Made by a program: the position numbers and the translations under genes
Shown: one piece after another, positions 7,734 through 61,242 of the stretch
Numbering within the stretch: position 1 is the first letter of the stretch
Layout: each line of letters starts with the position of its first letter
Sequence record: MG976803.1
Reading direction: 5' to 3' (one strand)
From: Escherichia phage myPSH2311
Length of the DNA stretch: 64,000 nucleotides
Notes under the pieces: model-generated
The model's database searches: none
What the model was told of the DNA's origin: nothing
What the model saw: the letters and a program-made list of their open reading frames with translations, nothing else

Positions 7734-7757
7734 GAGTAATGACATTACTATAAGCAA

Positions 7758-7777
7758 AACCCCGCTTAGGCGGGGTT
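7758..7777 (+). terminator. Hairpin after tail fibre gene (weak terminator candidate)
   Basis: AACCCCGC-TTAG-GCGGGGTT stem-loop; no clean T-tract. Confidence 0.3.
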
Positions 7778-7959
7778 AGCTTCCATAGGGTAGTTGTTTT
7801 CCCTGATGTAGTGGAATTTATCGGAGACAATGAGCTGGCTGCTTTGTTGCATTCTGATAAATAGTTCATAACTCCCCTTCGAGGTCTTTAGTAGTAAGTA
7901 CCTTTAGTAAGTAATGAAACTAATATATCCCAAGAGGTTAATACATAGGAGACAGATAA

Positions 7960-26228: not shown

Positions 26229-27470
<1,242 letters not shown>

Positions 27471-27762: not shown

Positions 27763-28509
27763 TCAGAAAGGCGAATCGTTATCATCTTCATAAGTAGAAG
27801 CAGGCTCTTTATCAATCGTAGGAATTGAAGGAGTAGCTTCTTTCTGTTCTGTTTCAGAAGCACGAGTAATTTCACGACCAGCCAGAGGCATGTTCTTAGC
27901 GTCATTAGCTTGAGTAAGCAGATTGCGCTGGAACGGGAACATCAGTTGATAAGATGCTACGTTCTCGTCGGTTTCAGCATACGGTTCGAAGAATACCAGA
28001 GGACTACGAGCTTCACCAACTGCTGCACGATATTTAGTTGGGATTGGAGAAATGGTCTTGATGGAGTTTTTAACTTCACCAGCTTTGTTAGTGTAAGAGT
28101 TAACCAGAATGTTAACAGGCTGACCTAACAGAACATCCTTGAACCAAGACAGATCACCTTTCAGTGCTTGAATACTTGGGTCAACCATCTTGCAAAGATC
28201 AAGAATACCAGAGTTCTTAGCTCGTGGGTTTACATCATAGCTCTTGAACTGGCAAGCCGGACGTGGTTCTAATGCCTTACCATCGGAATCTTTACCAGTA
28301 GCATCAACACCAATCAGCTCGAAAGCTAAATCCATACGGAAAGCCGGATTCTTAGGAGTTACTGCTTTGGTCTTCGGGTCAATCCAAGGGTCACGATTGT
28401 GAACACCCAAACCTACTACACGAACGATACGTGCTTCGTATTCACCATCAGGGATTACATCGTAGTTGGATTTACGGGAAGAAGTTGCGATAGTTGGAAT
28501 CATAGACAT
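27763..28509 (-). CDS. Single-stranded DNA-binding protein (T7 gp2.5-like)
   Basis: 248 aa with acidic C-terminal tail ending ...YEDDNDSPF (acidic tail plus terminal Phe as in gp2.5-type SSBs). Confidence 0.45.
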   Translation of the reverse strand: MSMIPTIATSSRKSNYDVIPDGEYEARIVRVVGLGVHNRDPWIDPKTKAVTPKNPAFRMDLAFELIGVDATGKDSDGKALEPRPACQFKSYDVNPRAKNSGILDLCKMVDPSIQALKGDLSWFKDVLLGQPVNILVNSYTNKAGEVKNSIKTISPIPTKYRAAVGEARSPLVFFEPYAETDENVASYQLMFPFQRNLLTQANDAKNMPLAGREITRASETEQKEATPSIPTIDKEPASTYEDDNDSPF

Positions 28510-37038: not shown

Positions 37039-37383
37039 TTAACTCTCCAAAGTTTTCTTCAGAGCTGCCCATGAGATTGGGTAGAGCTTAGCCATCTCTT
37101 CATCTACGGATTTAGCAAACACTCGAACTTCATATTGAGCGTGAGATGAGAGTCGCTGACGACACAACTCAAACCAGCCATACAAAGAACCAGTCCACAC
37201 CCACTCAGTGATCATCCCCTGAGGAAGAACAAATCGAGCTTGCTCTGGTGCAATAAATTCAATCAACTTGTCATATGTTGCTAGAGAAGCTTCATATGCA
37301 TCGTTAATCAACATTAATGCTTCAGCTCGTTCTCCGTCGATGAGTTGAATCCCTGAACCTGCATGGTTTGCCCAAAATGGCAT
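37039..37383 (-). CDS. thyX: ThyX, C-terminal half
   Basis: PEQARFVLPQGMITEWVWTGSLYGWFELCRQRLSSHAQYEVR matches ThyX C-terminal helical region. Confidence 0.55.
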   Translation of the reverse strand: MPFWANHAGSGIQLIDGERAEALMLINDAYEASLATYDKLIEFIAPEQARFVLPQGMITEWVWTGSLYGWFELCRQRLSSHAQYEVRVFAKSVDEEMAKLYPISWAALKKTLES

Positions 37384-37451
37384 TGGCGCTATAGCATGGG
37401 GCTTTTTAAATGGCCCCGCGGGTTAATGCTAATGGCGGATTTTGGCCACGG
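37384..37451. other. GC-rich insert splitting thyX into two ORFs in different frames
   Basis: 68 bp between the two ThyX ORFs; composition unlike flanking coding sequence. Confidence 0.55.
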
Positions 37452-37757
37452 TTATGCATGCGTAGGGAGTTCAACTGCTCCATCTTTATACCGCCGGGAC
37501 ATTTCGTTCCACGAGAATCCAACCTGATGCTTGCCCAGCTGTCTCGCAATTGCGATAGGTGCTTTGCATCGGAAACTGACTTGCGGGTGTCGGAATGGAG
37601 TACAGTGTTTTTCCCGTGCAAGGAAGTTGATAAGTTTTGTGTCTCTCTCATTTAAGTCACCTTCTCGAACAACACCGAAAGATACTCTAGCTGCATTGAC
37701 TACAGATTTGTCACTACCCATTGCTTCAATCAGTGTTGCTTGTAGTTGTTCGTTCAA
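37452..37757 (-). CDS. thyX: Flavin-dependent thymidylate synthase ThyX, N-terminal half (gene split)
   Basis: AARVSF...TPFRHPQVSFRCKAPIAIARQ...S(11)...SRRY ThyX-like pattern; ends shortly after SRRY. Confidence 0.55.
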   Translation of the reverse strand: MNEQLQATLIEAMGSDKSVVNAARVSFGVVREGDLNERDTKLINFLAREKHCTPFRHPQVSFRCKAPIAIARQLGKHQVGFSWNEMSRRYKDGAVELPTHA

Positions 37758-39322: not shown

Positions 39323-40135
39323 TATTATCCATTACCTGCTGGGTAATTACGATGCAGTTTAGGCATGGTAATGCGTTTAGGCGTCTTGGGGAGGTGCCCC
39401 CAGTTGCAAGCTGATGCTGCGGGTAAATTGGCGCCATGGGAAACGCGTTAATGCGTGCCTGATGTTATCTTTTCTCATGTGTTGCTCAAGATCCCAAACA
39501 ACATGAATAGCCCACATCTTTTTCATTAGTAATGTACCTTTCCGCTGATATAAACACGACCAGAAGAATACTCCTTGGCCTTATGGATGCTGATACTATT
39601 AACCACGTCACCAGTAAGCATAGTCTTTTTAAAATCTCGAGCTTGTTGACGAGTAGGGAGTGCAGTCATAGTCATACCACCTGATGCCCACTTAATCTTC
39701 GCTAACCAGAATTTTCTCATAGTGATTGGTCTCATTAGTAATAAACCTTACTGTTGACACAAAAAGCACCTTCACTATTCACGATAGCTTTTCCTAATGT
39801 AACCTTGTTAAGTCTAAAAGTAGACTTGTATTGGTTTTTGACCCTACGTGCGTGCTCTCGAGTATTAACAAAATCTACAGCTACTAACTCTCCAGTCGTG
39901 TTATCATGTACACGAACAATCCACTTTTTCATTTTACTAAACCCTTCATGTAGTCATAAAGATCATTAGAAGCTTTACCCCATTCAAGGTGCTTCTTATC
40001 CATATAACGCTTACAGACTTCTTTATTACCTTCATCACAAGTATCAAATCGATGACATGCCCGACCAAATACCATTGCTTTTAACTGAGCATCAGTAGTT
40101 AAATATTTAAGTTCTTGAAACTCTTCTTTATTCAT

Positions 40136-44073: not shown

Positions 44074-44240
44074 ACCAAAATTGCGTGACGTTGGCTAATT
44101 GCTGACGTGGAATGGCCCTGGCAATTGGGATGCCCCGTGTTAGCTGCGATTTGGCGCGTTATTGGCCCCGTGTTTGCAAGTAATGCGCGGGCTTTATGCC
44201 GTTAATGCTGGGTTTATGCGTGCATATTGCTGTGCCAATG
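44074..44240. other. GC-rich insert between primase zinc-ribbon and Toprim coding regions
   Basis: Zinc-ribbon ORF runs into this segment and stops; Toprim ORF begins just after it; composition unlike flanks. Confidence 0.55.
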
Positions 44241-44412
44241 CGTAATGGGTAGTGCCCTTTTCGAACACTTCGTAATTCCCACAACGGTTACAACTCCCCC
44301 ACTCCTCACCAGTCTCTTCGTTACGGAAGAGAATCATGTGGTTGTGGGTTTTATCACGACCATGAGAGATACATTCCTTACAACCTGTGTCTCCCAAAAT
44401 GATCTTTGACAT
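44194..44412 (-). CDS. Primase zinc-binding domain (N-terminal fragment of primase)
   Basis: CKEC...CNRC Cys4 zinc-ribbon; last ~17 residues are insert-encoded. Confidence 0.5.
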   Translation of the reverse strand: MSKIILGDTGCKECISHGRDKTHNHMILFRNEETGEEWGSCNRCGNYEVFEKGTTHYALAQQYARINPALTA

Positions 44413-44590: not shown

Positions 44591-45214
44591 TTAAATACTT
44601 GGCTTCAAGTCTCCGAAGAGCCATGTGGCAATTTTATCTTGTTCTTCGTCGATATGATAAATCCAAGCGATAACAGTTTCACCTGAGTCCATCTTAACAG
44701 CAATCTGAGTACGCTGATAGAAGCTGTCTTCAGGGCTACGTTTGTTGTAACCTTCCAGACGGTCATACGGACCTTCCAGACCTGCTTTGTCAGTAGCAAA
44801 CACTTCTACACGAACAGGCTTGTTGTTATTGCTGTGTGCGAGAGAGATGCTCGGGAAGTAGGAACCACCGTAACGGAACAGATCAAAGTTGTCTAATGGG
44901 CCGTTTTATGCGGTTTAAAGGCCTTGACCAGTGCATTTGCCCGTTAAATGGCGTGGGGATTTCCCAGTGCGGGTGGCCAGTAAACGTGTTTTGTCTTTGT
45001 CAGTAGCAAACACTTCTACACGAACAGGCTTGTTGTTATTGCTGTGTGCGAGAGAGATGCTCGGGAAGTAGGAACCACCGTAACGGAACAGATCAAAGTT
45101 GTCTTCAGTCCAACCTTCACCAATTGACTTAGCACCAGCTCGGTCATTAACTAAATAGTTAGCTTGACCACGACGAAGAGAACCATAAGTTGCTACGTAA
45201 ATTACTTCTGACAT
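44591..45214 (-). CDS. Gamma-glutamyl cyclotransferase (AIG2/GGCT)-like protein, interrupted by 100-bp insert with 110-bp flanking direct repeats
   Basis: N-terminus MSEVIYVATYGSLRRGQAN resembles YGSL...G GGCT signature; ORFs 44915-45214 and 44591-44803 join if 44895-45104 is removed. Confidence 0.45.
44895..44994. other. GC-rich insert flanked by 110-bp perfect direct repeats (44785-44894 and 44995-45104)
   Basis: Exact repeat verified by reading both copies. Confidence 0.6.
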
Positions 45215-45425
45215 TATCTATACCTTTCCAGTCTTTCATGATGTTTTCAATGTAAGCACACTGCTGATCAGTGGCTCCTGTTACAAACACTTCTAACCCC
45301 AACTGCTCACAGAAGGGATTAAGAATCAATATTCTGGTTTGCCCATACGAGTGATGCTCTCGGTAGATAACACACCCAGCATCCCATACAGAATCAATGG
45401 CTTTACTCAATCTTTCATGTTTCAT
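45159..45425 (-). CDS. Hypothetical protein
   Basis: 88-aa ORF overlapping GGCT-like start. Confidence 0.3.
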   Translation of the reverse strand: MKHERLSKAIDSVWDAGCVIYREHHSYGQTRILILNPFCEQLGLEVFVTGATDQQCAYIENIMKDWKGIDNVRSNLRSNLWFSSSWSS

Positions 45426-45478
45426 AAAACCTCCAGCTTATCCGAACTAGCCTCCTCTTTCGAAGAGGCTAAAGCAGA

Positions 45479-46880
45479 TTACTCTGTAATAAAGATTTTG
45501 ATTACACCACAGATTGCTGCACTCTCAAATACTGCAACAGCTTCACTCCCCTGAAAGAAGGCCACTTTGCCGTCAGAGAAGTTAAACATGTCAGCATCTA
45601 GGTCCATAGCTCGCATATCACCAGCGTCGTTAGTATCTTTAAACAGAACTTTATACTTATTCACAGATAGGTCACTCCTTTGTCTTGTTGTGCTTCAGAG
45701 ATGATACGTTCTACACATTCCATAGAATACTTATCACCACGTTTCAGGAAAGTCACAATTGCAGAGAATTGATTACCAATCATTCGCTGATTAGTAATAC
45801 CCCACTCCTCACACAACTTACGCAACTCTTTACGAGAGCCTACAATCAGAGGCTCTTTTTGTTCCATCATTCCATTTTGTACTAGATCTTCCAATGAAAA
45901 CATATCCATATATCCTTAGTAGTTTACAACAGTGCCATCGTTCAGGGTAAGGCTATTAATCTGCAACACACGACCAAGCTGACGATCACTAATTGGTGCG
46001 TTCCATCCAGAGCGGTAGAAGTTACGACCACAGAAGAACAAGATCACATTACTTGCTACAGTCGAACCGTTTTCAGGATGCTTGATGTTAGCGATATAAT
46101 AACCACGACGCAGATTACGACGGGTTACAGGGTTGATCTCTAACCCTTGCTCTTCAACTTGCATTGTTTCAGGAACAGGTTCCGAAGATTCTTCAGCAAC
46201 TGGCTCGGAGCTTTCCACTGACAGTGCGTAATCCTCATCACCTGCTGGTGAAAATGTTTCTTCCACTTCTTCAACAGGAAGTTCGTATGCAACACGATAG
46301 TCAGGCTCAACACCAGAGAAGCTCTTAACAAACTCAACAATATTGTGAGTATAGGTTTCCAGAGTTGTTCCAGTCAGTCCCGGAGCTGTGTTAACTTCCA
46401 GAACCCAAGCGTTAGTATTTTTACTAATCAGGTCAACAGCACCAAAGTTCAAACCCAGAGCAGATACAGCTTTGTGAGCTTGAATCAAAACCTGATCAGG
46501 AGGCGCATCTTGGAAGTTTGAGGAATAAACCCAACCAGTGTGATGATTTCGAACGTCTTCACGATAGGAAGGATCTTCACGGTAACCATTACGACGAATC
46601 TTCTTCTGAACGTAAGTGATAACACCTTCGAATACATGAACACGCCATTCACGATTGGTGAACGATAAGGGAAAGGTCCTTGGCCATAGCGTGGCGTATG
46701 CATGCATGCATGCATAAATTGCGTGTTTTGGGCGCGGTGAACGACTGTTAAAGTGTTAGCTTGACCACGACGAAGAGAACCATAAGTTGCTACGTAAATT
46801 ACTTCTGACATTATCTATACCTTTGTTGGTTTGTTTAGTTTATCCGAACTAGCCTCCTCTTTCGAAGAGGCTAAAGCAGA
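45479..46880 (-). repeat. Tandem repeat unit 3: truncated ATP-grasp copy (45916-46707), 82-aa ORF (45661-45909), 61-aa ORF (45479-45664), plus GC-rich junction and GGCT-start fragment
   Basis: Near-identical to units at 46881-48246 and 48247-49904; truncated copy begins exactly at codons REWRVHV. Confidence 0.7.
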
Positions 46881-48246
46881 TTACTCTGTAATAAAGATTT
46901 TGATTACACCACAGATTGCTGCACTTTCAAATACTGCAACAGCTTCACTTCCCTGAAAGAAGGCCACTTTGCCATCAGAGAAGTTAAACATGTCAGCATC
47001 TAGGTCCATAGCTCGCATATCACCAGCATCATTAGTATCTTTAAACAGAACTTTATACTTATTCACAGATAGGTCACTCCTTTGTCTTGTTGTGCTTCAG
47101 TGATGATACGTTCTACACATTCCATAGAATACTTATCACCACGTTTCAGGAAAGTTACAATTGCAGAGAATTGATTACCAATCATTCGCTGATTAGTAAT
47201 ACCCCACTCCTCACACAACTTACGCAACTCTTTACGAGAGCCTACAATCAGAGGCTCTTTTTGTTCCATCATTCCATTTTGTACTAGATCTTCCAATGAA
47301 AACATATCCATATATCCTTAGTAGTTTACAACAGTGCCATCATTCAGGGTAAGACTGTTAATCTGCAACACACGACCAAGCTGGCGATCACCAATCGGTG
47401 CATTCCACCCAGAGCGGTAGAAGTTACGACCACAGAAGAACAAGATCACATTACTTGCTACAGTTGAACCATTCTCAGGGTGCTTGATATTAGCGATGTA
47501 ATAACCACGACGTAAAGTACGACGGGTTACAGGGTTGATCTCTAACCCTTGTTCTTCCACTTGCATTGTTTCAGGAACAGGCTCCGAAGACTCTTCAACA
47601 ACTGGTTCAGCTGTCAATGCAAAGTTCTCGTCATCTGCTGATTCAGCAAACTCTTCCACTTCTTCAACAGGCAGTTCGTAAGCAACGCGGTAGTCAGGAT
47701 CAACACCAGAGAAACTCTTAACAAACTCAACGATGTTGTGAGTGTAAGTTTCCAGAGTTGTTCCAGTCAGGCCCGGAGCTGTATTAACTTCCAGAACCCA
47801 AGCGTTAGTACCTTTGCTAATCAGGTCAACAGCACCGAAGTTCAAACCCAGAGCAGATACAGCTTTGTGGGCTTGAATCAGAACCTGATCAGGCGGCGCA
47901 TCTTGGAAGTTTGAGGAATAAACCCAACCAGTATGATGGTTTCGAACGTCTTCACGATAGGAAGGATCTTCACGATAACCATTACGGCGAATCTTTTTCT
48001 GAACATAGGTGATAACACCTTCAAACACATGAACACGCCATTCACGAGGTGTAAGCTGCGAATGCGGTTAAATTGCAATGCGTGCCCAAGTGTTTTTGCT
48101 AAGGTGGGTAACATTTACGCGGTCCATTAGTCGTCGTGCAGTTGCGTATAAGTTGCTACGTAAATTACTTCTGACATTATCTATACCTTTGTTGGTTTGT
48201 TTAGTTTATCCGAACTAGCCTCATCTTTCGAAGAGGCTAAAGCAGA
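46881..48246 (-). repeat. Tandem repeat unit 2: truncated ATP-grasp copy (47318-48028), 82-aa ORF (47063-47311), 61-aa ORF (46881-47066), plus GC-rich junction
   Basis: Protein copies differ at a few residues from unit 1; same breakpoint as unit 3. Confidence 0.7.
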
Positions 48247-48432
48247 TTACTCTGTAATAAAGATTTTGATTACACCGCAGATTGCTGCACTTTCAAACAC
48301 TGCAACAGCTTCACTTCCTTGAAAGAAGGCCACTTTGCCATCAGAGAAGTTAAACATGTCAGCATCGAGGTCCATTGCTCGCATCTCACCAGCTGCATTG
48401 GTATCTTTAAACAGAACTTTATACTTATTCAC
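48247..48432 (-). CDS. Small protein (61 aa), first of three copies
   Basis: 61 aa; copies at 46881-47066 and 45479-45664 are identical in protein sequence, the unit-1 copy differs at two residues; followed by conserved hairpin. Confidence 0.35.
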   Translation of the reverse strand: MNKYKVLFKDTNAAGEMRAMDLDADMFNFSDGKVAFFQGSEAVAVFESAAICGVIKIFITE

Positions 48433-48677
48433 AGATATGTTACTCCCTTGTCTTGTTGTGCTTCAGTGATGATACGCTCTACACATTCCATAGAGTACTT
48501 ATCACCACGTTTTAGGAAAGTTACAATTGCAGAGAATTGATTACCAATCATTCGCTGATTAGTAATACCCAACTCCTCACACAATTTACGCAACTCTTTA
48601 CGAGAGCCTACAATAAGAGGCTCTTTTTGTTCCATCATTCCATTTTGTACTAGATCTTCCAATGAAAACATATCCAT
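48429..48677 (-). CDS. Small protein (82 aa), first of three copies
   Basis: Conserved in all three repeat units. Confidence 0.35.
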   Translation of the reverse strand: MDMFSLEDLVQNGMMEQKEPLIVGSRKELRKLCEELGITNQRMIGNQFSAIVTFLKRGDKYSMECVERIITEAQQDKGVTYL

Positions 48678-48683
48678 ATATCC

Positions 48684-49904
48684 TTAGTAGTTTACAACAG
48701 TGCCATCATTCAGGGTAAGGTTATTAATCTGCAACACACGACCAAGCTGACGATCACTAATTGGTGCGTTCCATCCAGAGCGGTAGAAGTTACGACCACA
48801 GAAGAACAAGATCACATTACTTGCTACAGTTGAACCATTTTCAGGATGCTTGATGTTAGCGATATAATAACCACGACGCAGATTACGACGGGTTACAGGG
48901 TTGATCTCTAACCCTTGCTCTTCAACCTGCATTATTTCAGGGACAGGCTCCGAAGACTCTTCAACAACTGGCTCGGAGCTTTCCGCTGATAGTGCGTAAT
49001 CCTCATCACCTGCTGGTGAAAATGTTTCTTCCACTTCTTCCACGGGAAGTTCGTATGCAACACGGTAGTCAGGCTCAACACCAGAGAAGCTCTTAACAAA
49101 CTCAACGATGTTGTGAGTGTAGGTTTCCAGAGTTGTGCCAGTCAGGCCCGGAGCTGTATTAACTTCCAGAACCCAAGCGTTAGTACCTTTGCTAATCAGG
49201 TCAACAGCACCGAAGTTCAAACCCAGAGCAGATACAGCTTTGTGAGCTTGAATCAGAACTTGATCAGGAGGCGCTTCAGTGAAGGAGTTAGAATAAACCC
49301 AACCAGTATGATGGTTACGAATATCTTCACGATAGCTTTCCAGTTCACGATAACCATTACGACGAATCTTCTTCTGAACGTAAGTGATAACACCTTCGAA
49401 CACATGAACACGCCATTCACGACGTGGGCCTTGGATGCCTTTGGTGTACAGAGGAGCATCCGCAACACCTTCTCGCGGAAGACGAACAGTGATCCCCTCA
49501 CCAGAGTGACCAGTCAAGGTTGCACGTTCATAAACAATTTCATTCCGGTTCCAGTTCTGAGCTACTTCACGATCTACGGTGTATTCAACAGTTTTGACTT
49601 CAGCTAAACGCAGTGCGTTAAATGCTGCAACTTTGTTAGCGGCTCGGTTCAAGGCAACCACAGAGTTCAATACAGTTGCACCGCCAAAGAAAGAATCATT
49701 ATATCGACGGTTTCCATAGTTGACAACAATATCACCAACTCGAGAACGATAACGAGAACCCTCTGATACCAGAGACATTACGTTAGCATTTAAGCGAAGT
49801 TCCTGAATCTTAGTTAACGGGTTACATGATGCGTTTAAGCCTGTTACCGTGGCGTTAAATCGGGTTAAGTCAGTCGTAGTGCGTAGTGACTTGTGTGATG
49901 GCAT
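48684..49904 (-). CDS. ATP-grasp family ligase (full-length copy)
   Basis: 406 aa; C-terminal half contains GAVDLISKGTNAWVLEVNTAPGLTG (ATP-grasp EVN..PG signature). Confidence 0.5.
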   Translation of the reverse strand: MPSHKSLRTTTDLTRFNATVTGLNASCNPLTKIQELRLNANVMSLVSEGSRYRSRVGDIVVNYGNRRYNDSFFGGATVLNSVVALNRAANKVAAFNALRLAEVKTVEYTVDREVAQNWNRNEIVYERATLTGHSGEGITVRLPREGVADAPLYTKGIQGPRREWRVHVFEGVITYVQKKIRRNGYRELESYREDIRNHHTGWVYSNSFTEAPPDQVLIQAHKAVSALGLNFGAVDLISKGTNAWVLEVNTAPGLTGTTLETYTHNIVEFVKSFSGVEPDYRVAYELPVEEVEETFSPAGDEDYALSAESSEPVVEESSEPVPEIMQVEEQGLEINPVTRRNLRRGYYIANIKHPENGSTVASNVILFFCGRNFYRSGWNAPISDRQLGRVLQINNLTLNDGTVVNY

Positions 49905-50353
49905 AGGTAACCTACGCCTATATGTACGTGACCACAGTCAGTACGAAGTCCCTTGTTCTGAGAAGTGGGGGACGGATTTTTCTGACCAGTGAAAGCGTTG
50001 AAGTCAGGAGTACATCCAAAGATGAACGCTGATTCATTAAAGGTCTTCATTTCTTCTTCGGTGAAGATGTGAGAGCTAACACCCGGAGCTGTTTCCATGT
50101 CCAGTTTGTTCAGGACATTATTGGTAAGATCGATACCACGTTGCATGTTATCGTTAAACGCTTCAAAACCGCTCTGTGGGTCGATATCAAACTCAGCCAG
50201 TACGTTGTCCTCTTGAAGACGAACATCTTTAGCCAGAGTGATCTTATCGTCCTTAGAACAGCCTAATAGACCAGCTACAGAGGTGATGATACCATTACTG
50301 GTACGAACGAACATTTCAGGGTCAGAGCCGATAAGGAATTTGCGCTTAGTCAT
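49865..50353 (-). CDS. Hypothetical protein (possible ligase-associated)
   Basis: 162-aa ORF overlapping neighbours; no confident motif. Confidence 0.3.
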   Translation of the reverse strand: MTKRKFLIGSDPEMFVRTSNGIITSVAGLLGCSKDDKITLAKDVRLQEDNVLAEFDIDPQSGFEAFNDNMQRGIDLTNNVLNKLDMETAPGVSSHIFTEEEMKTFNESAFIFGCTPDFNAFTGQKNPSPTSQNKGLRTDCGHVHIGVGYLCHHTSHYALRLT

Positions 50354-51317
50354 TGTAATACTCCACTAGTTCAGAAAAGAGAGATGAGATTGTGTTACCA
50401 ACTTCTTCAGGAGTAAGACCGGAATCTTCTCCAGTTCTTTGAATCAGTCGGGCTATAAAGTTTTGTACTGTAATGTTTCCCAACTTGTCGTCTATGGTTT
50501 CACGTTTATGACCATGACAAGTGGACCAGAGTCTTAGCCACTCTGACATTGTTGCATATTCAGCTGGGTCTTGATCTTTAGCAAGAGCAAATCTTCGTAA
50601 GGTCTCTGGGTTATGGTTACGAACATAGCCGTTCTCATTGTAACCAACACCAAAAGGGTTTTGAACCCATACTTGATTCGTGTATTCATCAGAGTCTACA
50701 ACCAAAGGAAGGAATGCTGATGCTGGCATATTGTAGTTAATAACAATAGATGTGCTCTCACTGCTCCCATTGGATCTTCCTTGTTGAGTCCACCCTCCAA
50801 AGAAGTCACGACCCAACCCAGCTAACACTAGAGCGATGCCGATGCGTTTACGCTTCAGCCACTCTTCCCTGTCTTCAATTCCTTCTGCTAGGAAATCCAT
50901 TCCACGATACTGCCCTTCCAGAATGCTACGGAAGAGCATAAGTCCTGTGAAGATCTGATCTGCTGGATGCTCACGAAGGTTGACAGCAACACTATTCGCT
51001 GAAGTGATCGTAAATACGTCACGATAGCAAGACATGGAGTTCATAATGTCTGCTGTTTCAACTAAGTTCTTTTCGATATCAGATGTAACATGACCGTGAA
51101 AAGAGTGAGTCCAGTAATTCAACATCTCCAGTTGCAAGTTGATATCACGGTTGAAGCTACGATAGCGCCCTTCTTCCGTGATAACTTCACCATTAATGTC
51201 ATTTACCCACTGGCCTTGCATGTGGTTGTGGATACCGAAGCACCCACGACCTAAGAACTTCTGTTCCCCTAAATCCTGTTGAAGATTCAGAGGTACGATC
51301 GTTGTGGAGATTGACAT
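50346..51317 (-). CDS. Hypothetical protein (possible carboxylate-amine ligase-like)
   Basis: 323-aa ORF in operon with ATP-grasp gene; assignment speculative. Confidence 0.25.
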   Translation of the reverse strand: MSISTTIVPLNLQQDLGEQKFLGRGCFGIHNHMQGQWVNDINGEVITEEGRYRSFNRDINLQLEMLNYWTHSFHGHVTSDIEKNLVETADIMNSMSCYRDVFTITSANSVAVNLREHPADQIFTGLMLFRSILEGQYRGMDFLAEGIEDREEWLKRKRIGIALVLAGLGRDFFGGWTQQGRSNGSSESTSIVINYNMPASAFLPLVVDSDEYTNQVWVQNPFGVGYNENGYVRNHNPETLRRFALAKDQDPAEYATMSEWLRLWSTCHGHKRETIDDKLGNITVQNFIARLIQRTGEDSGLTPEEVGNTISSLFSELVEYYND

Positions 51318-51327
51318 AACTAACCTT

Positions 51328-52527
51328 TTATTTTCCTAAAAATAATCCGCTCATAACACCATCCCACTCAGAGGATGGAATCACTGAATACTCCGAACTT
51401 TGGTCCAGAGTCCCACTACTAAATCGCTGAATAATGTTGTAGATGTTGAACAGGTCTTTAGCCTCGGCACGAATGCCGTAGATTAACCTGTTAGCTGTTC
51501 TCTCATTTTTAGACACGCGACGGGTAAAGTTAATCAGAAGGTTGTCACATTTCAGGATTTCCGATTCACTCTCTACTAAGTCGGGGTGCATCACCGGCAA
51601 GAACATCGAGTTATTAACTCGTAATTCTGCTGTTTCATCATTCTCATAATGAATCCACTTAAAATCTTCATCACGGAAATGACCGCATCCATCCCTATAC
51701 GACTGTTGACGCCAAGGCACTTGAAATGCTTCAGCATATTTATCAGCCATACCAACTGTAAACAGTGACGCTGGGAAGATACAAGCATCCCAATCATTAC
51801 CGACCAGAGTTGCTTTCGTTTCGCCCAAGAGGTTGGTGTAGGTGCTAACCATTCGTGAGTAAACGTAAGCCTGAAGGATTGTCCAGCCTTCAACCAACCA
51901 TTTATGAAGGAAGGTTTCCACTTGGCTCTCTTCATCTTCAAAATAGAAGGTTCGATCTAACATCAAATAGAACAGACAACGATCAGCAGGAACATTCTCA
52001 GTTGCTACACCCATAAAACCTTTTTCGTGCCAGCGTAAACAGGAGGGACGATCTTTGTCCACAAATGCTTCCATAGCTTCCAGTACAGCACGAGGTGTGG
52101 TTCGGTGTTCAGGGTTTTTGTCGTTCCAACGTTCGATGTTATTTTTAGGAGGTGTGTCTTCATCTTCATATGAACACCAACTTAAAGCTTCAGCTACGTG
52201 CTTTTCATCACGCCAGCGTCTGAAACCTAACATCTTCATGTGAGTTCCGGAGTTCCAGATATGCTTGATTTTACACATATCCATTTCTCGGCTTAGCCGG
52301 AACTCTTCTCCATCAGCACTACGAACGTTAGCTTCTTCATGCCACACTCGAACGTGCATATTCCACCCATGAGTTGCCTCATAAGTGTTAGGTTCAAAAT
52401 ATTCATCATACTCTTCATCGTCTTCATCAACGCCACCGTTATAGTTGCGAAGCTGAAGGAACCCATAACAAGGGGGGTTGACCGTTAAAACATTACCTTC
52501 AGTATCTTCTAATGTTACTGGAAACAT
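51328..52527 (-). CDS. Hypothetical protein
   Basis: 399-aa ORF, acidic N-terminal region. Confidence 0.3.
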   Translation of the reverse strand: MFPVTLEDTEGNVLTVNPPCYGFLQLRNYNGGVDEDDEEYDEYFEPNTYEATHGWNMHVRVWHEEANVRSADGEEFRLSREMDMCKIKHIWNSGTHMKMLGFRRWRDEKHVAEALSWCSYEDEDTPPKNNIERWNDKNPEHRTTPRAVLEAMEAFVDKDRPSCLRWHEKGFMGVATENVPADRCLFYLMLDRTFYFEDEESQVETFLHKWLVEGWTILQAYVYSRMVSTYTNLLGETKATLVGNDWDACIFPASLFTVGMADKYAEAFQVPWRQQSYRDGCGHFRDEDFKWIHYENDETAELRVNNSMFLPVMHPDLVESESEILKCDNLLINFTRRVSKNERTANRLIYGIRAEAKDLFNIYNIIQRFSSGTLDQSSEYSVIPSSEWDGVMSGLFLGK

Positions 52528-54235: not shown

Positions 54236-55018
54236 TTACATCGGAGTTAAGATGATCTCTGCTTTGGCAAACTTCTCGCCAACTTCAAGAGTGTCAGAAA
54301 CAGGACGAGGTTCGATGTGCAGTTCGTCCAATTCATCAAGACCTTTAACAGATAGTACACCTGTGGATAGATTCACTACAGGAACCCAGCCACTGGCTAT
54401 ACGGATGTTACCAGAAGCATTTTCAACCCTCATATAATACTGAGGAGAGGCACTTCCGTGCTGAACCATGAAGGGGTTTCCGGGAATGATTGTTTCCAAT
54501 CGAACCGTATTATCCTTTTTCTTTGGGATGATTTTCATTATGTATTATCCACCAAAAGTTCTGCCGACACAGGAATAACTCGACAATAAATAGAAGGTGC
54601 TGTTACATTGCCATCAGACAGACGAAGAGTGATTGATCTGTCAGAGTTGATAGTAACGTTTGGACTTGCAGACACAGACCCTTTGACATACAGGGTTGCA
54701 TTGTCAGGAAACTTAAACACAGCTCCGCTGGGAAGTGAGTTGAGGTCAACTGTAGTCACTTCTTCTTTCTTGTGAGTAATCTTCATATTATTTACCCTGA
54801 ATAATAAGTTTAGATTCGAACAGATCAACAGTATTGGACAAAGGGACAGGAAAGAAAATATCTTTAGGGTTCCGAACACACATTGCAGAATGCTCCCCTG
54901 TTTTTATCCAGAATTTAGGGACTACATCGTCACCAGTAAAACGAAAAACATCTCCATTCTCCAAGTCAGAGAAAGTCTTGGAGGGTGTTTTGCTTTTTGG
55001 TACTAGCTCAAAATTCAT
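54236..55018 (-). CDS. Three tandem small paralogous ORFs (54788-55018, 54538-54879, 54236-54538)
   Basis: Shared hydrophobic-x-G-(D/A/S)-V-F motif about 20-30 residues from N-terminus. Confidence 0.35.
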
Positions 55019-55026
55019 CTTGATTC

Positions 55027-55338
55027 CTATTTAAGTTTGAGGCTAATGTTAAGGTGCATACATGCTCTGTTCTGTACAGCAGCATAACTTCTACCGAGCA
55101 TGTCAGCCATTCTCTGAATAGACATGAACCCAGCATTACGGATAAGGAACTGGTCCTCTTCTTCAGACCATTTAACTCGGATTGAAGCTCTTGATATGCC
55201 GAATTTAGTGCAAGCTGTGTTAACAGCATTCTCCGTTACATTCATAATCTGAGCTACTTCTTGAACCGAGTACTCTTTGATTAGTCTCCGAAGATTTTCA
55301 ATCTGCATCGGAGTCCATATAGTTCTTCGTGCTTTCAT
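55027..55338 (-). CDS. Myb/SANT-like helix-turn-helix DNA-binding regulator
   Basis: Two W...EED...L repeats (WTPMQIENLRRL and WSEEEDQFLIRN) with HTH-like segments. Confidence 0.4.
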   Translation of the reverse strand: MKARRTIWTPMQIENLRRLIKEYSVQEVAQIMNVTENAVNTACTKFGISRASIRVKWSEEEDQFLIRNAGFMSIQRMADMLGRSYAAVQNRACMHLNISLKLK

Positions 55339-56600
55339 ACATCCTCCAATTAATTGTTAAAACTATCAGGGGAGAACACTAGCTCTGGGCCACGCTGTAG
55401 ATATCGGCCTACCTTCCACAGCTAATCAGCTAATATACTCCCCTAATAGTTTATGAATAGGGGGAGGGGACGAATCCTCCCTTATCCTATTAGTTAATAT
55501 TGCATGTAAGATCTAACAATCGGTTGCCTTTGTAGGAATAAGCGTAAAGCCAATCCAGCACTAAACTCCCGCCCCCTTAGTGGGCTGGGTTATTAAAGGG
55601 TAACGCCCTTATGGGCTAGTTACATGAATGTTAGTTTGATAGGAGATCTGAAGTCCTATCTCAAAGGACTCTCGTAAGAATCCTTCACGATATTACTTAT
55701 TCATCTCTCGTCGGCTATCTCTCCAAGCCAACCAAGTGTAGGTTTTCAGTTCTTCAAAGTCTTCTGGAGAGAATAGATACTCTTTGAAGGTGTTCCCAAA
55801 CCACTCTAAAAATTCTTCAGTCATGAGTCCTCATACAGTGATCTGAGTCGTTTGAACGAGCTGAGTTTCAGGAGCTTCTGAGTCATGCCAGGATGTCGTA
55901 GTCGTGATGTTTTTAGTGAGGACCAATTCAGAACTTACGAGCACCACAGCAAGGAGAGTTGACATAAGAGTAACCAGCTTGTGTATTCTTGATTGTTTGC
56001 TTAGACATTTGAGCTTCCTCTTGTTAGTTTAGGTAAACCACCCCAATCACTGCTGCACTCATTCATGTGGAATGCAGATGGGAAAAGTAATTAAAGGTGA
56101 TTTACCTAAAACAACAAAGGCCACCCGAAGCCAGCTAAGCTACTGACATTGCATGAATCCAAAAGCCTTCCAGTTTCAGAGCACCATTAGCTACTGCATC
56201 CATACGTTCAGGGCGGTTCATACGTTTGGTTGATACTTTCATACCTATCTCTCTTTGTTAGTGGAGGCATTATTGCCAGTTGATATAAGGGATAGCCCTA
56301 GTCAGTAGACTAATCCTGACCGCGTACTCATTGCCGACCTTCTCTGCCTAAGAGTTCAGGTTCTAGAGCTATCTCTTATTCCAACTGGTGAAGACTCCCT
56401 ACCCCTAGGAAGTCTCCTGAATCCCAAACTAATACGTACCCCTACATATCAGAAAGTCTTTCGAAAATTAACAGGTTTTAGTCTAGCACCGGATGTTCGA
56501 GCAAGCTCTCCCTAGCGGTGTGGCATATGCCTGAATTAATAAGTTAATGAGGAACACCCTCACATAGCCCTCTGATAAACACAAGGGCTATAAGTCGATG

Positions 56601-57620
56601 TTACTTTTGAGTCAAACACAGATCGGGACGTGGCATAACAGTGGTTGATAGACCGAAGACTTCAACATAACCGCTGCTCAAGTTAGCAGCCTTACGCAAA
56701 CCGTCAGAGGTCTTATCTTCTAGCATCAGCCAGAAACGTTTATCGTAAGAGAAAACATCACCGCCCTTAACATCTTCTGCATTTGCATATTTAGGATAAT
56801 CAACTACTTTAATTTCCATTCACTTACCTTTATTAGTAATTACTGCATCTGGGATAAGGATTACAGGAAGATTTGAATTAAGCTTCATAACCTGATTAGT
56901 TCTTAAACCAAGCACAACTGTTCCAGAATCTTTCCTGTTCGACTCGGTTACGTGTGGAGTGAATAAACTAACAACCAAATAGTGATCGACGCATGTAGAT
57001 TTAACTTGGAATACATCTCCAAGCTTTAAATCACCCACTGTAAGATCTGGGTCTTTCATCTCAAGATCAATCTTCATCTTTAGCCTCTATGTTGGTTATG
57101 TGAAGATCACTACGTACTTGGCAGACTTCATCCCGTTTAAAAGGCATGAGCTTTCCAGTTACCACATCAACACAGTTGACATAATTGTCTGCGTACAATG
57201 TGTCGGTTCTGATGTAAAGGGATTCTTTACGCTCAAACAGAACCCCCGGCTTCATGTTATTTAAGCGAAGCATTGTACGATCGGATTTAATATTAACTTT
57301 CATCTTTAATCCACCTTATTGGTAAGTCGAGCATTATCAACTACCTGAACAACAGTATCTTTTCTCAACATTGTTATTCTATCCGAAGTGAGATCTACTA
57401 CTACTCTTTCGTCAGGCTTCCAACTAGCTGAATAAACGGTTGAGGAATCTAGCTTTACTGTAAGATATATTTTATTTTTAGGTGGAACAGTTTCAAAAAC
57501 ACTCCCCACCTTCAGGTCTTTCAGTTGCTTGACTACAGGGGCTGTATTAATATCATGCTTCATTGTTAATCTCCTGCTGTTTAGCAATAGCCACTCGCAA
57601 GTCTTCATTAGCACGAGCAA
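56601..57620 (-). CDS. Four tandem small paralogous ORFs (57306-57620, 57067-57303, 56820-57077, 56601-56819)
   Basis: Each 70-105 aa with (D/N)(L/V/M)K.G(D/S/V)(V/L)F motif; same family as 54236-55018. Confidence 0.35.
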
Positions 57621-58048
57621 GGCGTAACACTTCGTGGTTGAGGTTCTGAAGACGCTTGTTTCTGTCCTCTACTTGCATAATAAGATCGTTAAGTGTTACT
57701 TTAACTTTCTCATTATACATCTCATCCACTCGAACTAGGGATTTATACATTCTTTCCCAGCTTGCTGCTTTGTTTCTGAGAACAATAAATCCTAGAACAC
57801 TGATAGTTAAACAGCTTACAAAAAGGAATTTATATACTTCTAAAGTCATATTATTTACCCTTTATCAGAGATTAAAAGTAATATTATTTAAGTAAGTTAT
57901 ATTTAGTAAACTTATTTTCTAAGAAATTTTCAAAGGGTCTATATACAGAGCATTACCCATAGTCCCAGAATACTACCATCTTTTTCAATAAATTTACTAA
58001 GTGGTTGGTTTATAAAGGAATTTAGTTTGTCAAATCTGGCACTAGTGA

Positions 58049-58438
58049 TTATTCCCTAGAGCTGTTATCGAACACTAAATCACCACAATACATAGGATTG
58101 GCATACCATTTTGGCACCCCTTCGCTCTTACTCTGAAAGTAAGTCCCACTATACAGCGGAACATAATTCTTCTTAAGGGCACGTTTAGCAAGTCGCTCGC
58201 TTTCTCCAATGGCTTGCTTAGTCATCGGATTTTTATCACGAATCAGCTTTACATAACGTTTATAAGGTTTCTCCTGTTTTAATAGTACCGGAATCCACTC
58301 AAACTGGTTCTTTTGTCTTATCACCTGTTCAGCGGTCAGTTTTCGTTGGGCCATTCTATTTATCACGGTATCCGCAACTAAAGCCTTACATGCGGTTGGC
58401 TGATTCCCTGCCTCATAATAAATAGTCAATGTCAACAT
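58049..58438 (-). CDS. Cell-wall hydrolase (SleB/CwlJ-like)
   Basis: IYYEAGNQP...CKALVADTVINRM resembles the hydrolase_2 pattern (EA.GE...A...V..NR); RBS AACAGGAGG. Confidence 0.45.
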   Translation of the reverse strand: MLTLTIYYEAGNQPTACKALVADTVINRMAQRKLTAEQVIRQKNQFEWIPVLLKQEKPYKRYVKLIRDKNPMTKQAIGESERLAKRALKKNYVPLYSGTYFQSKSEGVPKWYANPMYCGDLVFDNSSRE

Positions 58439-58487
58439 TAGCTGTGCCGTTGTTATCAGAACTTGATACCTCCTGTTTTACGGGCAT

Positions 58488-58513
58488 AAAAAAGCCCCAG
58501 CCGTAGCCGGGGC
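58488..58513 (-). terminator. Rho-independent terminator (second of two tandem hairpins; the other at 58580-58606)
   Basis: Minus-strand GCCCCGGC-UACG-GCUGGGGC followed by U6. Confidence 0.6.
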
Positions 58514-58824
58514 AAACCTGAAAGCAACACATGACCGTTGCTATAAATACACTCGCAAATGCACTTACAGCAACGCAAAAAGCCGCTCAAAGGCGGCTAT
58601 GCGGAAGCTTCAAATGGGGAGAGGGCACGACGCGACAGAAAGAGCGTCATAGTACTAAAAAGAGAGGCTATTGGAGAGGTTACTTATTGCCTTCCTTAAT
58701 GCCTTGTTTTCTTGTTTAACCAATTCGTTTTCTTCTTGCAAGGATGCTACCAGATGGACCAGAACATCAACTACTGCATCACCTTGCCGCATCTCTCTGA
58801 CTTTATTTAGAATCTCTGAATAAA

Positions 58825-59268
58825 TCATTTTACCCTCGCCTCTTTGATGGGGTCGATGTATTTCTCAACGCCCCACTTGTGTTTACTATCTGCGTAGAAA
58901 ACATCAGGTGCACATTGGCTTGTTTTAGGGAAGGCTTGCGGGTCTTTCGTGCTCCCCTTAAACTTCTGTTTACCTCGAGTGCGACCATTACAGAAGATTT
59001 CTAACTTCTTCTCTTCTTCTGTTTTAGCTCCCCCGCTCTGTAACAAAGAACGTTTATGATCAGCCAACAACAACGCATCAGCCCGATGGACACGATGGCC
59101 TACACGCTTTGCCACACTGGAAGGAACATGGGATTCAGCCTCAGCCTTTGCAGCACGACGTTTTAAACTACGCTTACTAACGTGATTAGTTGCCTTCGGT
59201 TTCTCTTTCTCTAGTTCAGAGATAGCAAAACAACGACCGCCCTTCATGCTGATTTTAGATTTAGCCAC
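58825..59268 (-). CDS. Basic hypothetical protein
   Basis: 147 aa, K/R-rich. Confidence 0.3.
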   Translation of the reverse strand: MAKSKISMKGGRCFAISELEKEKPKATNHVSKRSLKRRAAKAEAESHVPSSVAKRVGHRVHRADALLLADHKRSLLQSGGAKTEEEKKLEIFCNGRTRGKQKFKGSTKDPQAFPKTSQCAPDVFYADSKHKWGVEKYIDPIKEARVK

Positions 59269-59385
59269 AATCTTATTCCTTTCAGTGATAAGTTATATCG
59301 GGCAAGCCCATCAAGGCGATAGGCTTGAACAAATAACTTAATCAAGTAAACTAAACGATTTCCAACTCTTTTTTACGGTGCCCGA

Positions 59386-59688
59386 TTATCTACGTTGCGA
59401 TCTTTTGCTGATGGCAGTCTTTAAGTCGCTAGTCGGTAGTCGGGTATCTTTACTGTCTTTAGTCGTAGTCGTAAATGCGTACTTTGTCAAAAGTCGTGCA
59501 TGTGATTGAGCAAATGACGCTTTAACAGCCATTTTCCTAACTTCTTCTTTACGCTGGTTAGTGTGTACAGTATCCCAATGATTGTTATCACGTTGGCGCT
59601 GTAATATCTTACTACATTTGCGATGGTTTCCCGTGCTGCGATGTTTCTCGCAAATAGGACACTTGCCAAAATTATTACTGAATATCAT
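59386..59688 (-). CDS. Cys/His-containing small protein (possible zinc-binding)
   Basis: CPIC...H...C spacing in first 30 residues. Confidence 0.3.
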   Translation of the reverse strand: MIFSNNFGKCPICEKHRSTGNHRKCSKILQRQRDNNHWDTVHTNQRKEEVRKMAVKASFAQSHARLLTKYAFTTTTKDSKDTRLPTSDLKTAISKRSQRR

Positions 59689-60014: not shown

Positions 60015-61242
60015 TTATGCCGCTTGACGTGCCGCCATAATCTCAGCCGCTTTGCGCAGTACTTCTTCCTCTTCTGCTTTCGCCGCTTGTTCACTACGGA
60101 TTGCAACCGTTGAAGAGATACGACCGCGCAGGTTATCTAATTTTTCCTGCATTTTGGCAATGGTGGATTCCATTTCATCAGCGTATGAATCGAGTGATTC
60201 TAATTCCTTGCTTGATGCGTTCATCAGATAATCATCCGAGATCGCTACCGTTGAGGCCGTGACTTTCTTGATGAGTGAATCAAAGGACTTTTTAACCTTC
60301 CCAACTTCTTCACTCAGGGCGATAGTGTTATCGCTAGTTGCGCCGTTGCGCTCATCAGCCAGTAATTTGGCTTCAATACGGATTGCATTCAAACGTTCGA
60401 CTAAAGCGTAAATATCTTGGTTAAAATCTTCCTTGTTTTTCGCCGGTATTTGCAGGTGTGCCACTACGTTGTCATTGCAACCCTTGTAAAAGTTAGGATT
60501 ATCGACTTCAATTTCACGACCTAGTGCAAAATTTTCGAAAGCATTTGACCAGCGAGCGCGGTTTAGTACCATTTTGGATTTAATTTGCGCTACTTTCGCA
60601 TCTTCTTTAGCTTTCGCCTCACCTTCCAGAATAAACCACTATTTACGAACATATGCGTCCCGTGTACCCGTCGTTTACTTGACTGGCTTTGTCATGCGTA
60701 TTTTGTCGTACGTGACTGTTTTCGTACGTTGCGTGCATGCGTTTTGTCAAAATGTTTTTCGCCGGTATTTGCAGGTGTGCCACTACGTTGTCATTGCAAC
60801 CCTTGTAAAAGTTAGGATTATCGACTTCAATTTCACGACCTAGTGCAAAATTTTCGAAAGCATTTGACCAGCGAGCGCGGTTTTGTTCCATTTTGGTTTT
60901 AATTTGCGCTTCTTTCGCATCTTCTTTAGCTTTCGCCTCACCTTCCAGATTAATCCACTTTTTACGACCATTTGCCGCATCGGTGTTAAACTTGATAGGA
61001 GTTAAGAAAGTAATTGCGGTAGCGATAACATCCATATCACGGAAACGTTCAGTTAACAGGAAGTCAACCGCCGCCTGCAATACATCTAACTTCTTACCGT
61101 TGCTACGAAAGTGCTGCAAATGCCCTAACAGGAAGTTAGAAACATCTTGTTTGATCGCCGCGTTATTACTGCGAATGTTGTTAGCCAGAGCATTAAAACC
61201 GGATTCGTTAACCAGAGTAAAGATTTTAGCCATAATATTCAC
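60015..61242 (-). CDS. Hypothetical protein, interrupted by 102-bp insert and 217-bp duplicated segment
   Basis: ORFs 60643-61242 and 60015-60572 share a duplicated RARWSNAFENFALGREIEVDNPNFYKGCNDNVVAHLQIPAKN segment. Confidence 0.4.
60651..60752. other. Insert flanked by 217-bp direct repeats (60434-60650 and 60753-60969) that differ at 8 positions
   Basis: Base-by-base comparison of the two copies. Confidence 0.6.

Follow-up and report, generated by a model that had tools for sequence, protein, structure and literature searches.

The segment 44591-52527 of the 64,000-nucleotide stretch of Escherichia phage myPSH2311 analysed here (MG976803.1; the window) is assigned, by sequence comparison, to the previously described phiEco32/SU10-type amide-ligase gene cluster in a Kuravirus genome, and the way its genes are arranged here is an artefact of assembly. 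The best explanation as a whole, a cassette lying in a reference-ordered draft assembly together with a proposed amide-ligation mechanism, was given a probability of about 75%. The window, a phiEco32/SU10-like Kuravirus genome, is nearly identical, block by block, to Escherichia phage myPSH1131, and its genes are orthologous to those of SU10, phiEco32 and ES17 (87-100% identity). Every ORF cited in the earlier note was found, on the minus strand. Blocks collinear with SU10 are interrupted throughout the window by segments of 94-100 nt without homology, referred to below as fillers.

The GGCT gene is present in two parts on the minus strand. Its C-terminal part (44591-44894), at a contig end, shows 96.6% identity to SU10 gp078 aa 38-126 by tblastn and matches Pfam GGACT at profile positions 70-107; the N-terminal part (44995-45214; aa 1-73, with the YGSL motif) is 100% identical to SU10 gp078 aa 1-73. 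The fragments 44591-44803 and 44915-45214 scored 25.4 and 26.2 bits, over the Pfam GGACT threshold of 22.8, and the SU10 orthologue scored 63.6 bits to GGACT / AIG2-like (PF06094). The filler at the contig join between the two parts (44895-44994, no strand; 100 nt, G/T-rich) has no homology to SU10 or myPSH1131 and lies between the two copies of an exact 110-nt overlap (44785-44894 and 44995-45104). When the filler and one copy of the overlap were removed, an intact full-length GGCT ORF with YGSLRRG and DRLEGY was obtained; a YGSL motif and a catalytic Glu are features of the GGACT/AIG2 family. By profile match and motifs the protein is a member of the GGACT / AIG2-like gamma-glutamyl cyclotransferase family. 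It had been described as adjacent to the ATP-grasp enzyme, a description that does not hold, as the gene is split by filler and overlap and is separated from the full ATP-grasp gene by two extra, partial copies of the ATP-grasp unit.

The ORF 48684-49904 encodes the ATP-grasp enzyme (phrog_2599, E 1.6e-177). The first 30 codons of this 406-aa ORF come from filler and are spurious; the codons equivalent to SU10 gp082 aa 25-400 are at 48687-49814 (minus strand). A profile of 24 homologues matches RimK / alpha-L-glutamate ligase chains (PDB 4iwx, 5zct, 7qys) with E values of 4e-6 to 1e-5, and PF08443 is a precomputed match in many of the homologues. The single sequence stays under the Pfam cut-off (15.9 vs 21 bits), and its best NCBIfam matches, the RimK family and MptN, are far under the RimK equivalog cut-offs (25 vs 331 bits). 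With the family profile and PF08443 on one side and these single-sequence scores on the other, the enzyme belongs to the ATP-grasp superfamily but does not qualify as a RimK equivalog. The residues of the nucleotide/Mg site are invariant in the 24-sequence alignment (K85, G126-H127-S128-G129-x-G131, D229 and E241-V242-N243). The fold is collinear with that of RimK / alpha-L-glutamate ligase, and the EVN(T/S)xPG Mg/ATP motif is common to both, whereas the phage core is about 30 residues shorter than RimK and carries an extra C-terminal region of 130 aa. The ATP-grasp and GGCT-like calls of the earlier note were thus borne out by phrog_2599, the RimK-type profile and Pfam GGACT. An N-terminal extension of about 170 residues, claimed in the same note, proved wrong: residues 64-157 of RimK are matched by positions 48-138 of the profile, and distant homologues with a length of only about 270 aa cover residues 13-264. 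The additional part is C-terminal (approximately residues 265-400), and its last 82 aa match phrog_20552.

Three large ORFs of the locus had been listed as uncharacterised. One of them, 49865-50353 (162 aa), is a truncated COOH-NH2 ligase of the phiEco32 type. Only the N-terminal 147 of 268 codons are retained (49912-50353, minus strand; phrog_3815, E 4.7e-62, residues 1-151), with 96.6% identity to SU10 gp088 aa 1-147 by tblastn, and the filler supplies a spurious 15-residue tail and stop codon. A Pfam search with this ORF gave no match; the SU10 orthologue matches PF14395 at 34 bits over residues 139-213, largely beyond the retained 1-147. The fragment is an orthologue (phrog_3815), though an incomplete member of PF14395. 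The description stood for the other two ORFs, which are conserved, full-length and without assigned function: a 323-aa protein of the SU10 gp089 family (50346-51317, minus strand; phrog_13102), for which tblastn found no homologue outside Escherichia/Shigella phage records, and a 399-aa protein of the SU10 gp090 family (51328-52527, minus strand; phrog_13063). A small ORF homologous to SU10 gp079 (45159-45425, minus strand; phrog_13365, E 2.5e-42) accompanies only the first copy of a repeat described below; the contigs of copies 2 and 3 lack it, and so do MN03/ShigP1-type phages.

The intact relatives of the window share gene order and neighbours. The order is gp090, gp089, COOH-NH2 ligase, gp087, Amidoligase_2, class-II GATase, DUF7195, ATP-grasp, two or three small ORFs, GGCT and primase/helicase. 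In these relatives ATP-grasp and GGCT stand in a conserved co-directional block with the class-II glutamine amidotransferase, Amidoligase_2 and COOH-NH2 ligase, which lends support to the proposal of a gamma-glutamyl or peptide-ligation cassette. Sixteen IMG/VR loci keep the synteny, with identities as low as 33-35%. Among the partners of ATP-grasp, conservation is strongest for the three enzymes absent from the window; GGCT is the loosest member, missing or distant in some loci that retain the four core enzymes, and the small DUF7195 protein is always directly upstream of ATP-grasp in the loci compared. The intact cassette is widespread, in Kuravirus and its relatives, LUZ24-like phages and marine phages. 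In the LUZ24-like (Bruynoghevirus) phage UFV-P2, ORF20-ORF29 comprise a hypothetical protein, COOH-NH2 ligase, a hypothetical protein, amidoligase, GATase, a small ORF, ATP-grasp, GGCT and replication genes (PMC3890496). The gene order is that of the kuraviruses, but the LUZ24-like ATP-grasp is only 291 aa, without the C-terminal domain, and the GATase is shorter (486 aa).

The idea of a peptide-ligation cassette is already known and was predicted about 15 years ago. As cited in PMC10580990, Iyer et al. 2009 (Mol Biosyst 5:1636) proposed that the phiEco32 system makes peptide-like amide linkages, and Pfam describes PF14395 as 'Phage phiEco32-like COOH.NH2 ligase-type 2' and PF12224 as Amidoligase_2. 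No report of a product or target of the intact cassette, and no biochemical data for any of its members, were found in the literature searched. In the mechanism judged most likely, three ATP-dependent carboxylate-amine ligases (the RimK-like ATP-grasp, the glutamine-synthetase-like amidoligase and the GCS2-like COOH-NH2 ligase) would form successive amide bonds with glutamate- or glutamine-type building blocks. The Ntn-type amidotransferase would provide ammonia from glutamine, and the GGACT-like enzyme would take off a gamma-glutamyl group as 5-oxoproline, in product deprotection or recycling. Early in infection this would yield a product in the form of a small peptide-like compound or a tag. 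As a rough split for its target, some two-fifths of the weight was placed on a small metabolite or cell-wall precursor and three-tenths on a protein; a nucleotide or DNA, and any other target, each received half the share of a protein.

In butirosin biosynthesis, BtrJ is an ATP-grasp gamma-glutamyl ligase, and the gamma-glutamyl protecting group is taken off by the GGCT-like enzyme BtrG. By description, this pair likewise combines an ATP-grasp ligase with an AIG2/GGCT-fold enzyme, suggesting glutamylation followed by removal as 5-oxoproline. The phage cassette differs in that genes for an acyl carrier protein or for aminoglycosides are lacking and three more amide-forming enzymes are present.

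A narrower function, carrying a minor share of the probability, is that the ATP-grasp enzyme would act like RimK, adding glutamates to a host or phage protein, at its C-terminus or on a side chain, with GGCT and the other ligases as accessories. The best solved relatives (RimK and alpha-L-glutamate ligases) and the best NCBIfam matches given above point this way; the extra C-terminal domain of the kuravirus-group enzymes could bind a target, and the constant position of DUF7195 is also consistent with it. The bit score far below the RimK equivalog cut-offs argues against such a role, and three further ligase/amidotransferase enzymes are hard to explain for one tag. The neighbouring small proteins do not have conserved C-termini, and therefore offer no support for a C-terminal-Glu substrate of the LysW or S6 kind.

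It is unlikely that nucleotides or DNA are modified by the intact kuravirus cassette, which might attach an amino-acid-derived group, and that this underlies the restriction resistance of Gordonclarkvirinae. The cassette does adjoin primase/helicase in all examined loci that extend far enough, and lies within a nucleotide-metabolism/replication module to which dCTP deaminase, nucleotidyltransferase and ThyA also belong. Against this, profile searches recognised no DNA- or nucleotide-acting enzyme among its members, and the nearest solved ATP-grasp relatives act on protein or peptide carboxylates. The characterised pathways of thymidine hypermodification rely on kinases and pyrophosphorylase-type transferases and are not known to employ ATP-grasp ligases. 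The BASEL authors credit the possible modification to dCTP deaminase and nucleotidyltransferase, not to the cassette. A wider proposal concerns the nine-gene block of the kuraviruses, which includes the four amide-forming/amidotransfer enzymes, GGCT, DUF7195 and the fold-orphan gp089 and gp090. That this block makes an undescribed amino-acid-derived modification of nucleotide, DNA or host protein, possibly contributing to the unexplained Gordonclarkvirinae restriction resistance, is quite unlikely, and the window adds only gene content to the case.

The co-linear set of GATase II, Amidoligase_2, COOH-NH2 ligase and ATP-grasp is not found in the window, in contrast to SU10, phiEco32, 14 other loci and GenBank record MG983840.1. 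At the filler 49815-49911 (no strand), the one that contributes the spurious codons of the ATP-grasp and ligase ORFs, SU10 coordinates jump from 54774 to 59492, and 4.7 kb are lost: gp083, the DUF7195 protein gp084, GATase gp085, amidoligase gp086, gp087 and the C-terminal half of the ligase, which is thus truncated at the gap. By tblastn of the window, gp085, gp086 and gp087 gave no match; the genes lost occur in MG983840.1. Since the cassette is incomplete in the window and complete in another assembly of the same phage, the loss is an assembly gap.

Part of the cluster occurs three times. Between 45435 and 49426, a 1.2-kb unit (61-aa ORF, 82-aa ORF and the C-terminal two-thirds of ATP-grasp) is repeated, with about 100 nt of non-homologous filler between copies. 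Neither this triplication nor the 4.7-kb gap was noticed in the earlier note. All three copies are on the minus strand. Copy 1 (45435-46654; repeat family D1-D5) holds the 61-aa ORF at 45479-45664, the 82-aa ORF at 45661-45909 and an ATP-grasp C-terminal fragment at 45916-46654. In copy 2 (46749-48051), the first 21 codons of GGCT are followed by the 61-aa ORF (46881-47066), the 82-aa ORF (47063-47311) and an ATP-grasp fragment (47318-48051). Copy 3 (48148-49814; tblastn with gp082 aa 25-400, phrog_2599, RimK-like by profile against PDB) has a remnant of the GGCT start, the 61-aa ORF (48247-48432), the 82-aa ORF (48429-48677) and the ATP-grasp codons at 48687-49814.

The copies are not each other's closest relatives. 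Copy 2, with a match to ShigP1, FS2B and EcM-vB1 that begins at 46749, shows 99.8-99.9% identity over 46837-48051 to the single-copy locus of these phages (99.9% to ShigP1), and copy 3 shows 100% identity to ES17 over 48203-49426, while identity between copies is only 91-94%. Copies 2 and 3 match phages of different lineages (the ShigP1 group and ES17); the copies are redundant contigs and not an amplification. The best outside match of copy 1 is 95.4% (phage EK5). Of three places in myPSH1131, one is 100% identical to copy 1, and among about 90 kuravirus records only that of myPSH1131 has more than one place matching the unit. Since nothing nearly identical to copy 1 occurs in the phage collection, its putative source is a third co-assembled strain. 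Three contigs over the same 1.2-1.4 kb have been laid end to end, giving a false triplication.

No head-to-tail junction of genuine sequence was found between the copies; they are joined by stretches of filler, 94-100 nt long, G/T-rich and without homology. These are the contig joins 46655-46748 (about 100 nt, without homology, with ATGC repeats and positive GC skew) and 48052-48147 (about 100 nt), neither having a strand. A positive GC skew accompanies the G/T-rich composition of the fillers, in a region whose own skew is negative. SU10 coordinates jump at fillers by +210, -81, -110, -1503, -1224 and +4717, and the genes for the major head protein, thymidylate synthase and primase/helicase are also broken by them. 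The myPSH1131 genome was built from CLC de novo scaffolds ordered with CONTIGuator2 on an NCBI-downloaded sequence (PMC6200275). The pattern, the composition and this published method suggest contig concatenation with about 100 nt of non-biological filler, against which it counts that four of the BLAST-defined fillers are 94-97 nt and not exactly 100. With contigs stitched by about 100 bases of junk, the odd features are therefore assembly and not biology. A real, accordion-like tandem amplification of the C-terminal part of ATP-grasp and two small genes, with a compensating 4.7-kb amidotransferase/amidoligase deletion, would account for the identical copy-specific sequences in the window and MG983840.1, for copies 1 and 2 stopping at the same ATP-grasp position (SU10 54382 and 54386) and for a genome left near 76 kb by the net length change, but is highly improbable given the filler at all junctions, the different lineages of copies 2 and 3, the same filler breaking essential genes (capsid, primase/helicase) of a viable phage, the 'deleted' genes and further duplicated regions in MG983840.1, and the reference-guided contig ordering.

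A contig-concatenated pseudomolecule accounts for all the unusual features: the length of the ATP-grasp ORF, the frameshift in GGCT, the gene repeats and the absence of partners. Any other anomaly of the window deserves distrust unless it falls within a single contig block. The window contributes nothing new on the product or target of the cassette. The intact cassette of the relatives is a fair experimental target.

All the ORFs named in the earlier note are present on the minus strand, and their translation revealed repeats which that note had overlooked. Three copies each are present of an 82-aa ORF (45661-45909, 47063-47311 and 48429-48677), a 61-aa ORF (45479-45664, 46881-47066 and 48247-48432) and the C-terminal two-thirds of the ATP-grasp sequence (45916-46707, 47318-48028, and within the full ORF at 48684-49904), all on the minus strand. 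The repeat finder returned three copies with a start-to-start distance of ~1366-1402 nt and 90-98% identity. Nothing was reported by Tandem Repeats Finder, as the array period exceeds the limit of the tool.

By megablast the region belongs to Kuravirus (phiEco32, SU10, NJ01, ES17 and others). A 5.3-kb part of the query collapsed onto 2.4 kb in all the relatives, which are therefore single-copy for the unit. Among ~90 kuravirus records, more than one match to the unit was seen in myPSH1131 (MG983840.1) only, which is also the only place outside the window with the three ATP-grasp fragments. Each copy was then compared with the single-copy loci. Copy 2 (46837-48051) shares 99.8-99.9% identity with the locus of ShigP1, FS2B and EcM-vB1, and copy 3 (48203-49426) matches ES17 at 100%; for copy 1 (45435-46654) the best match in any other phage reaches 95.4%. 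The gp079 gene lies on copy 1; copies 2 and 3 are without it, like MN03- and ShigP1-type phages. Because copies 2 and 3 match different phage lineages, the copies are only 91-94% identical to each other and differ in gp079, and no kuravirus record but myPSH1131 has more than one match, they are best read from sequence as alternative contigs of one locus and not as paralogues. The source of these contigs is probably a mixed or contaminated library.

When SU10 was aligned with the whole window, collinear blocks were found, with many interruptions by 94-100-nt segments without homology, at which the SU10 coordinate jumps forward or backward. These fillers lie at 2656-2754 (jump of +210), 23211-23310 (-81), 37367-37466 (+38), 39360-39459 (+452), 44895-44994 (-110), 46655-46748 (-1503), 48052-48147 (-1224, measured to the large block starting at 48203), 49815-49911 (+4717) and 60657-60752 (-223). 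A further site was listed at 44080-44248. The fillers are G/T-rich (G 0.25-0.36, C 0.15-0.27, against a window average of G 0.21 and C 0.22), and the GC skew around them is locally negative. They break the genes for the major head protein, gp024, thymidylate synthase, primase/helicase and others, and the phage whose major head, thymidylate synthase and primase/helicase genes are so disrupted was propagated in the laboratory. Similar G/T-rich junk is present at the block joins of MG983840.1. The output of CONTIGuator2 consists of pseudocontigs, with 100-base spacers between contigs. For myPSH1131, CLC de novo scaffolds were ordered by CONTIGuator2, with a sequence downloaded from NCBI as reference (PMC6200275). 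From the non-homologous G/T-rich segments, the broken genes, and the use of CONTIGuator2 with its 100-base spacers, we conclude that the fillers are spacers and not phage DNA. All 64 kb of the window are a pseudomolecule ordered on a reference, and anomalies near filler points are suspect throughout it.

The window and MG983840.1 are 99.5-100% identical per block and differ in block arrangement. Between 48000 and 70000 of MG983840.1, SU10 48534-50081 and SU10 58078-59358 each occur twice as further redundant blocks. Many CDSs of this record are fragmented; it is the founding member of the proposed genus Vellorevirus. Elsewhere in the window, the tail-fibre region (4941-7873) has ~2.9 kb without nucleotide match to SU10, followed by a block only 77% identical, and is probably the usual receptor-binding-protein swap. 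At 27206 and 27763-27775 the window lacks two SU10 genes, gp033 (macro/Appr-1-p domain) and gp036 (HNH endonuclease); the junctions carry no filler, and these absences look like genuine indels.

The GGCT gene is split by one of the fillers. Its first 19 residues (MSEVIYVATYGSLRRGQAN) are found twice in the window, and the repeat finder detected an exact 110-nt duplication (44785-44894 and 44995-45104). Deleting the filler at 44895-44994 together with one copy of the 110-nt overlap gave a single intact, full-length ORF. The rebuilt protein equals SU10 gp078 over the first 123 residues and carries the motifs YGSLRRG and DRLEGY.

The ATP-grasp protein belongs to phrog_2599 (E 1.6e-177) and has more than 3,000 homologues, many with PF08443 (RimK). 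A 24-sequence profile searched against structures matched RimK and alpha-L-glutamate ligase (E 4e-6 to 1e-5), with profile positions 48-138 aligned to RimK 64-157 and 205-272 to RimK 223-290. K85, a GHSGEG loop, D229 and E241-x-N243 are invariant in the alignment. Distant homologues in other phages are ~270 aa long and align to residues 13-264. Since these homologues and the RimK alignment cover that part of the protein, the ~170-residue N-terminal extension described earlier does not exist. In the 406-aa ORF the first 30 codons come from filler, and the true first 24 codons are missing. The lineage-specific part in the kuravirus group is an acidic linker and C-terminal domain (~residues 270-406; 48687-49090), whose final 82 aa correspond to phrog_20552, a family of 82 positions. 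This domain is missing from the more distant homologues.

The filler at 49815-49911 stands in place of SU10 54775-59491, which encodes gp083, the DUF7195 protein gp084, the 676-aa class-II glutamine amidotransferase (GATase) gp085, the Amidoligase_2 protein gp086, gp087 and the C-terminal 121 codons of the COOH-NH2 ligase gp088. As MG983840.1 carries these genes, the window has a gap here and not a deletion. The 162-aa ORF at 49865-50353, previously listed as uncharacterised, consists of residues 1-147 of the COOH-NH2 ligase and a filler tail. The ORFs of the earlier note were borne out, and the extension and its view of this ORF were not. Neither the COOH-NH2 ligase nor the amidoligase had a meaningful match among PDB sequences, and no solved structure of either phage enzyme was found. 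The GATase matched PDB entries weakly, through the N-terminal Ntn domain only.

The ATP-grasp profile recovered 16 IMG/VR loci, in which the intact cassette was examined. The gene order is gp090, gp089, COOH-NH2 ligase, gp087, Amidoligase_2, GATase, DUF7195, ATP-grasp, small ORFs, GGCT and primase/helicase. The full order is kept down to ~40% ATP-grasp identity, and the four enzymes GATase, COOH-NH2 ligase, Amidoligase_2 and ATP-grasp are still found together at ~33-35%. GGCT is the loosest member, being 5-9 kb off in three loci and undetected in three others. The DUF7195 protein (73-96 aa), lost to the assembly gap of the window, lies between GATase and ATP-grasp in every locus to ~36% identity; its gene (SU10 gp084) is ~200-450 nt upstream of that for ATP-grasp. 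The protein may act on the ligase as a partner or regulator. An identical cassette order has been tabulated for the LUZ24-like phage UFV-P2 (PMC3890496). PF14395 is phiEco32-like in its Pfam description and, according to a passage in a citing paper, Iyer et al. (2009) proposed a cell-wall modification by the phiEco32 amidoligase and GATase that would prevent superinfection (PMC10580990). Literature searches found no experimental work on the phage cassette.

The 323-aa protein (50346-51317, minus strand) and its neighbour, the 399-aa protein (51328-52527, minus strand), are conserved, and their families appear limited to kuravirus-like phages. In BFVD, one of the pair has matches among uncharacterised proteins of 290-320 aa from GAP52, Proteus and Aeromonas phages. 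The model of the 323-aa protein weakly resembles PafA/Dop; that of the 399-aa protein is confident and has no PDB neighbour. A short invariant motif (PAD..F..LML.R) is common to both families, as PADQIFTGLMLFR in the 323-aa and PADRCLFYLMLDR in the 399-aa protein, and suggests distant paralogy. HMM comparison of the two families gave no cross-matches and no profile-level similarity. A link at the sequence level between the two proteins, or from either of them to the ligases of the cassette, was rejected (hhalign probabilities <3%), leaving fold-level hints and the shared motif.

The RimK, GCS2 and glutamine-synthetase affinities suggest that the cassette chemistry would involve glutamate or glutamine. 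Three ATP-dependent carboxylate-amine ligases of different folds would form successive amide bonds, ammonia would be supplied by the Ntn amidotransferase, and a GGACT-type enzyme would release the gamma-glutamyl group as 5-oxoproline. Butirosin biosynthesis employs ATP-grasp and GGCT enzymes in protect-and-deprotect steps, and the proposed logic of the phage pair resembles it. The 61-aa acidic ORF ending in Glu was considered as a LysW- or S6-like carrier and substrate of the ATP-grasp enzyme; this was rejected because the small proteins (61-aa, 82-aa and DUF7195 families) have C-termini that vary from locus to locus. The target may be a nucleotide or DNA, as replication genes are adjacent and unexplained RM resistance has been reported for Gordonclarkvirinae; none of the genes in the cassette block points specifically to such a target. 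The ligation cassette proposed in the earlier note is broadly right, and had already been described in the literature and in Pfam. The unusual local features of the window are assembly artefacts.
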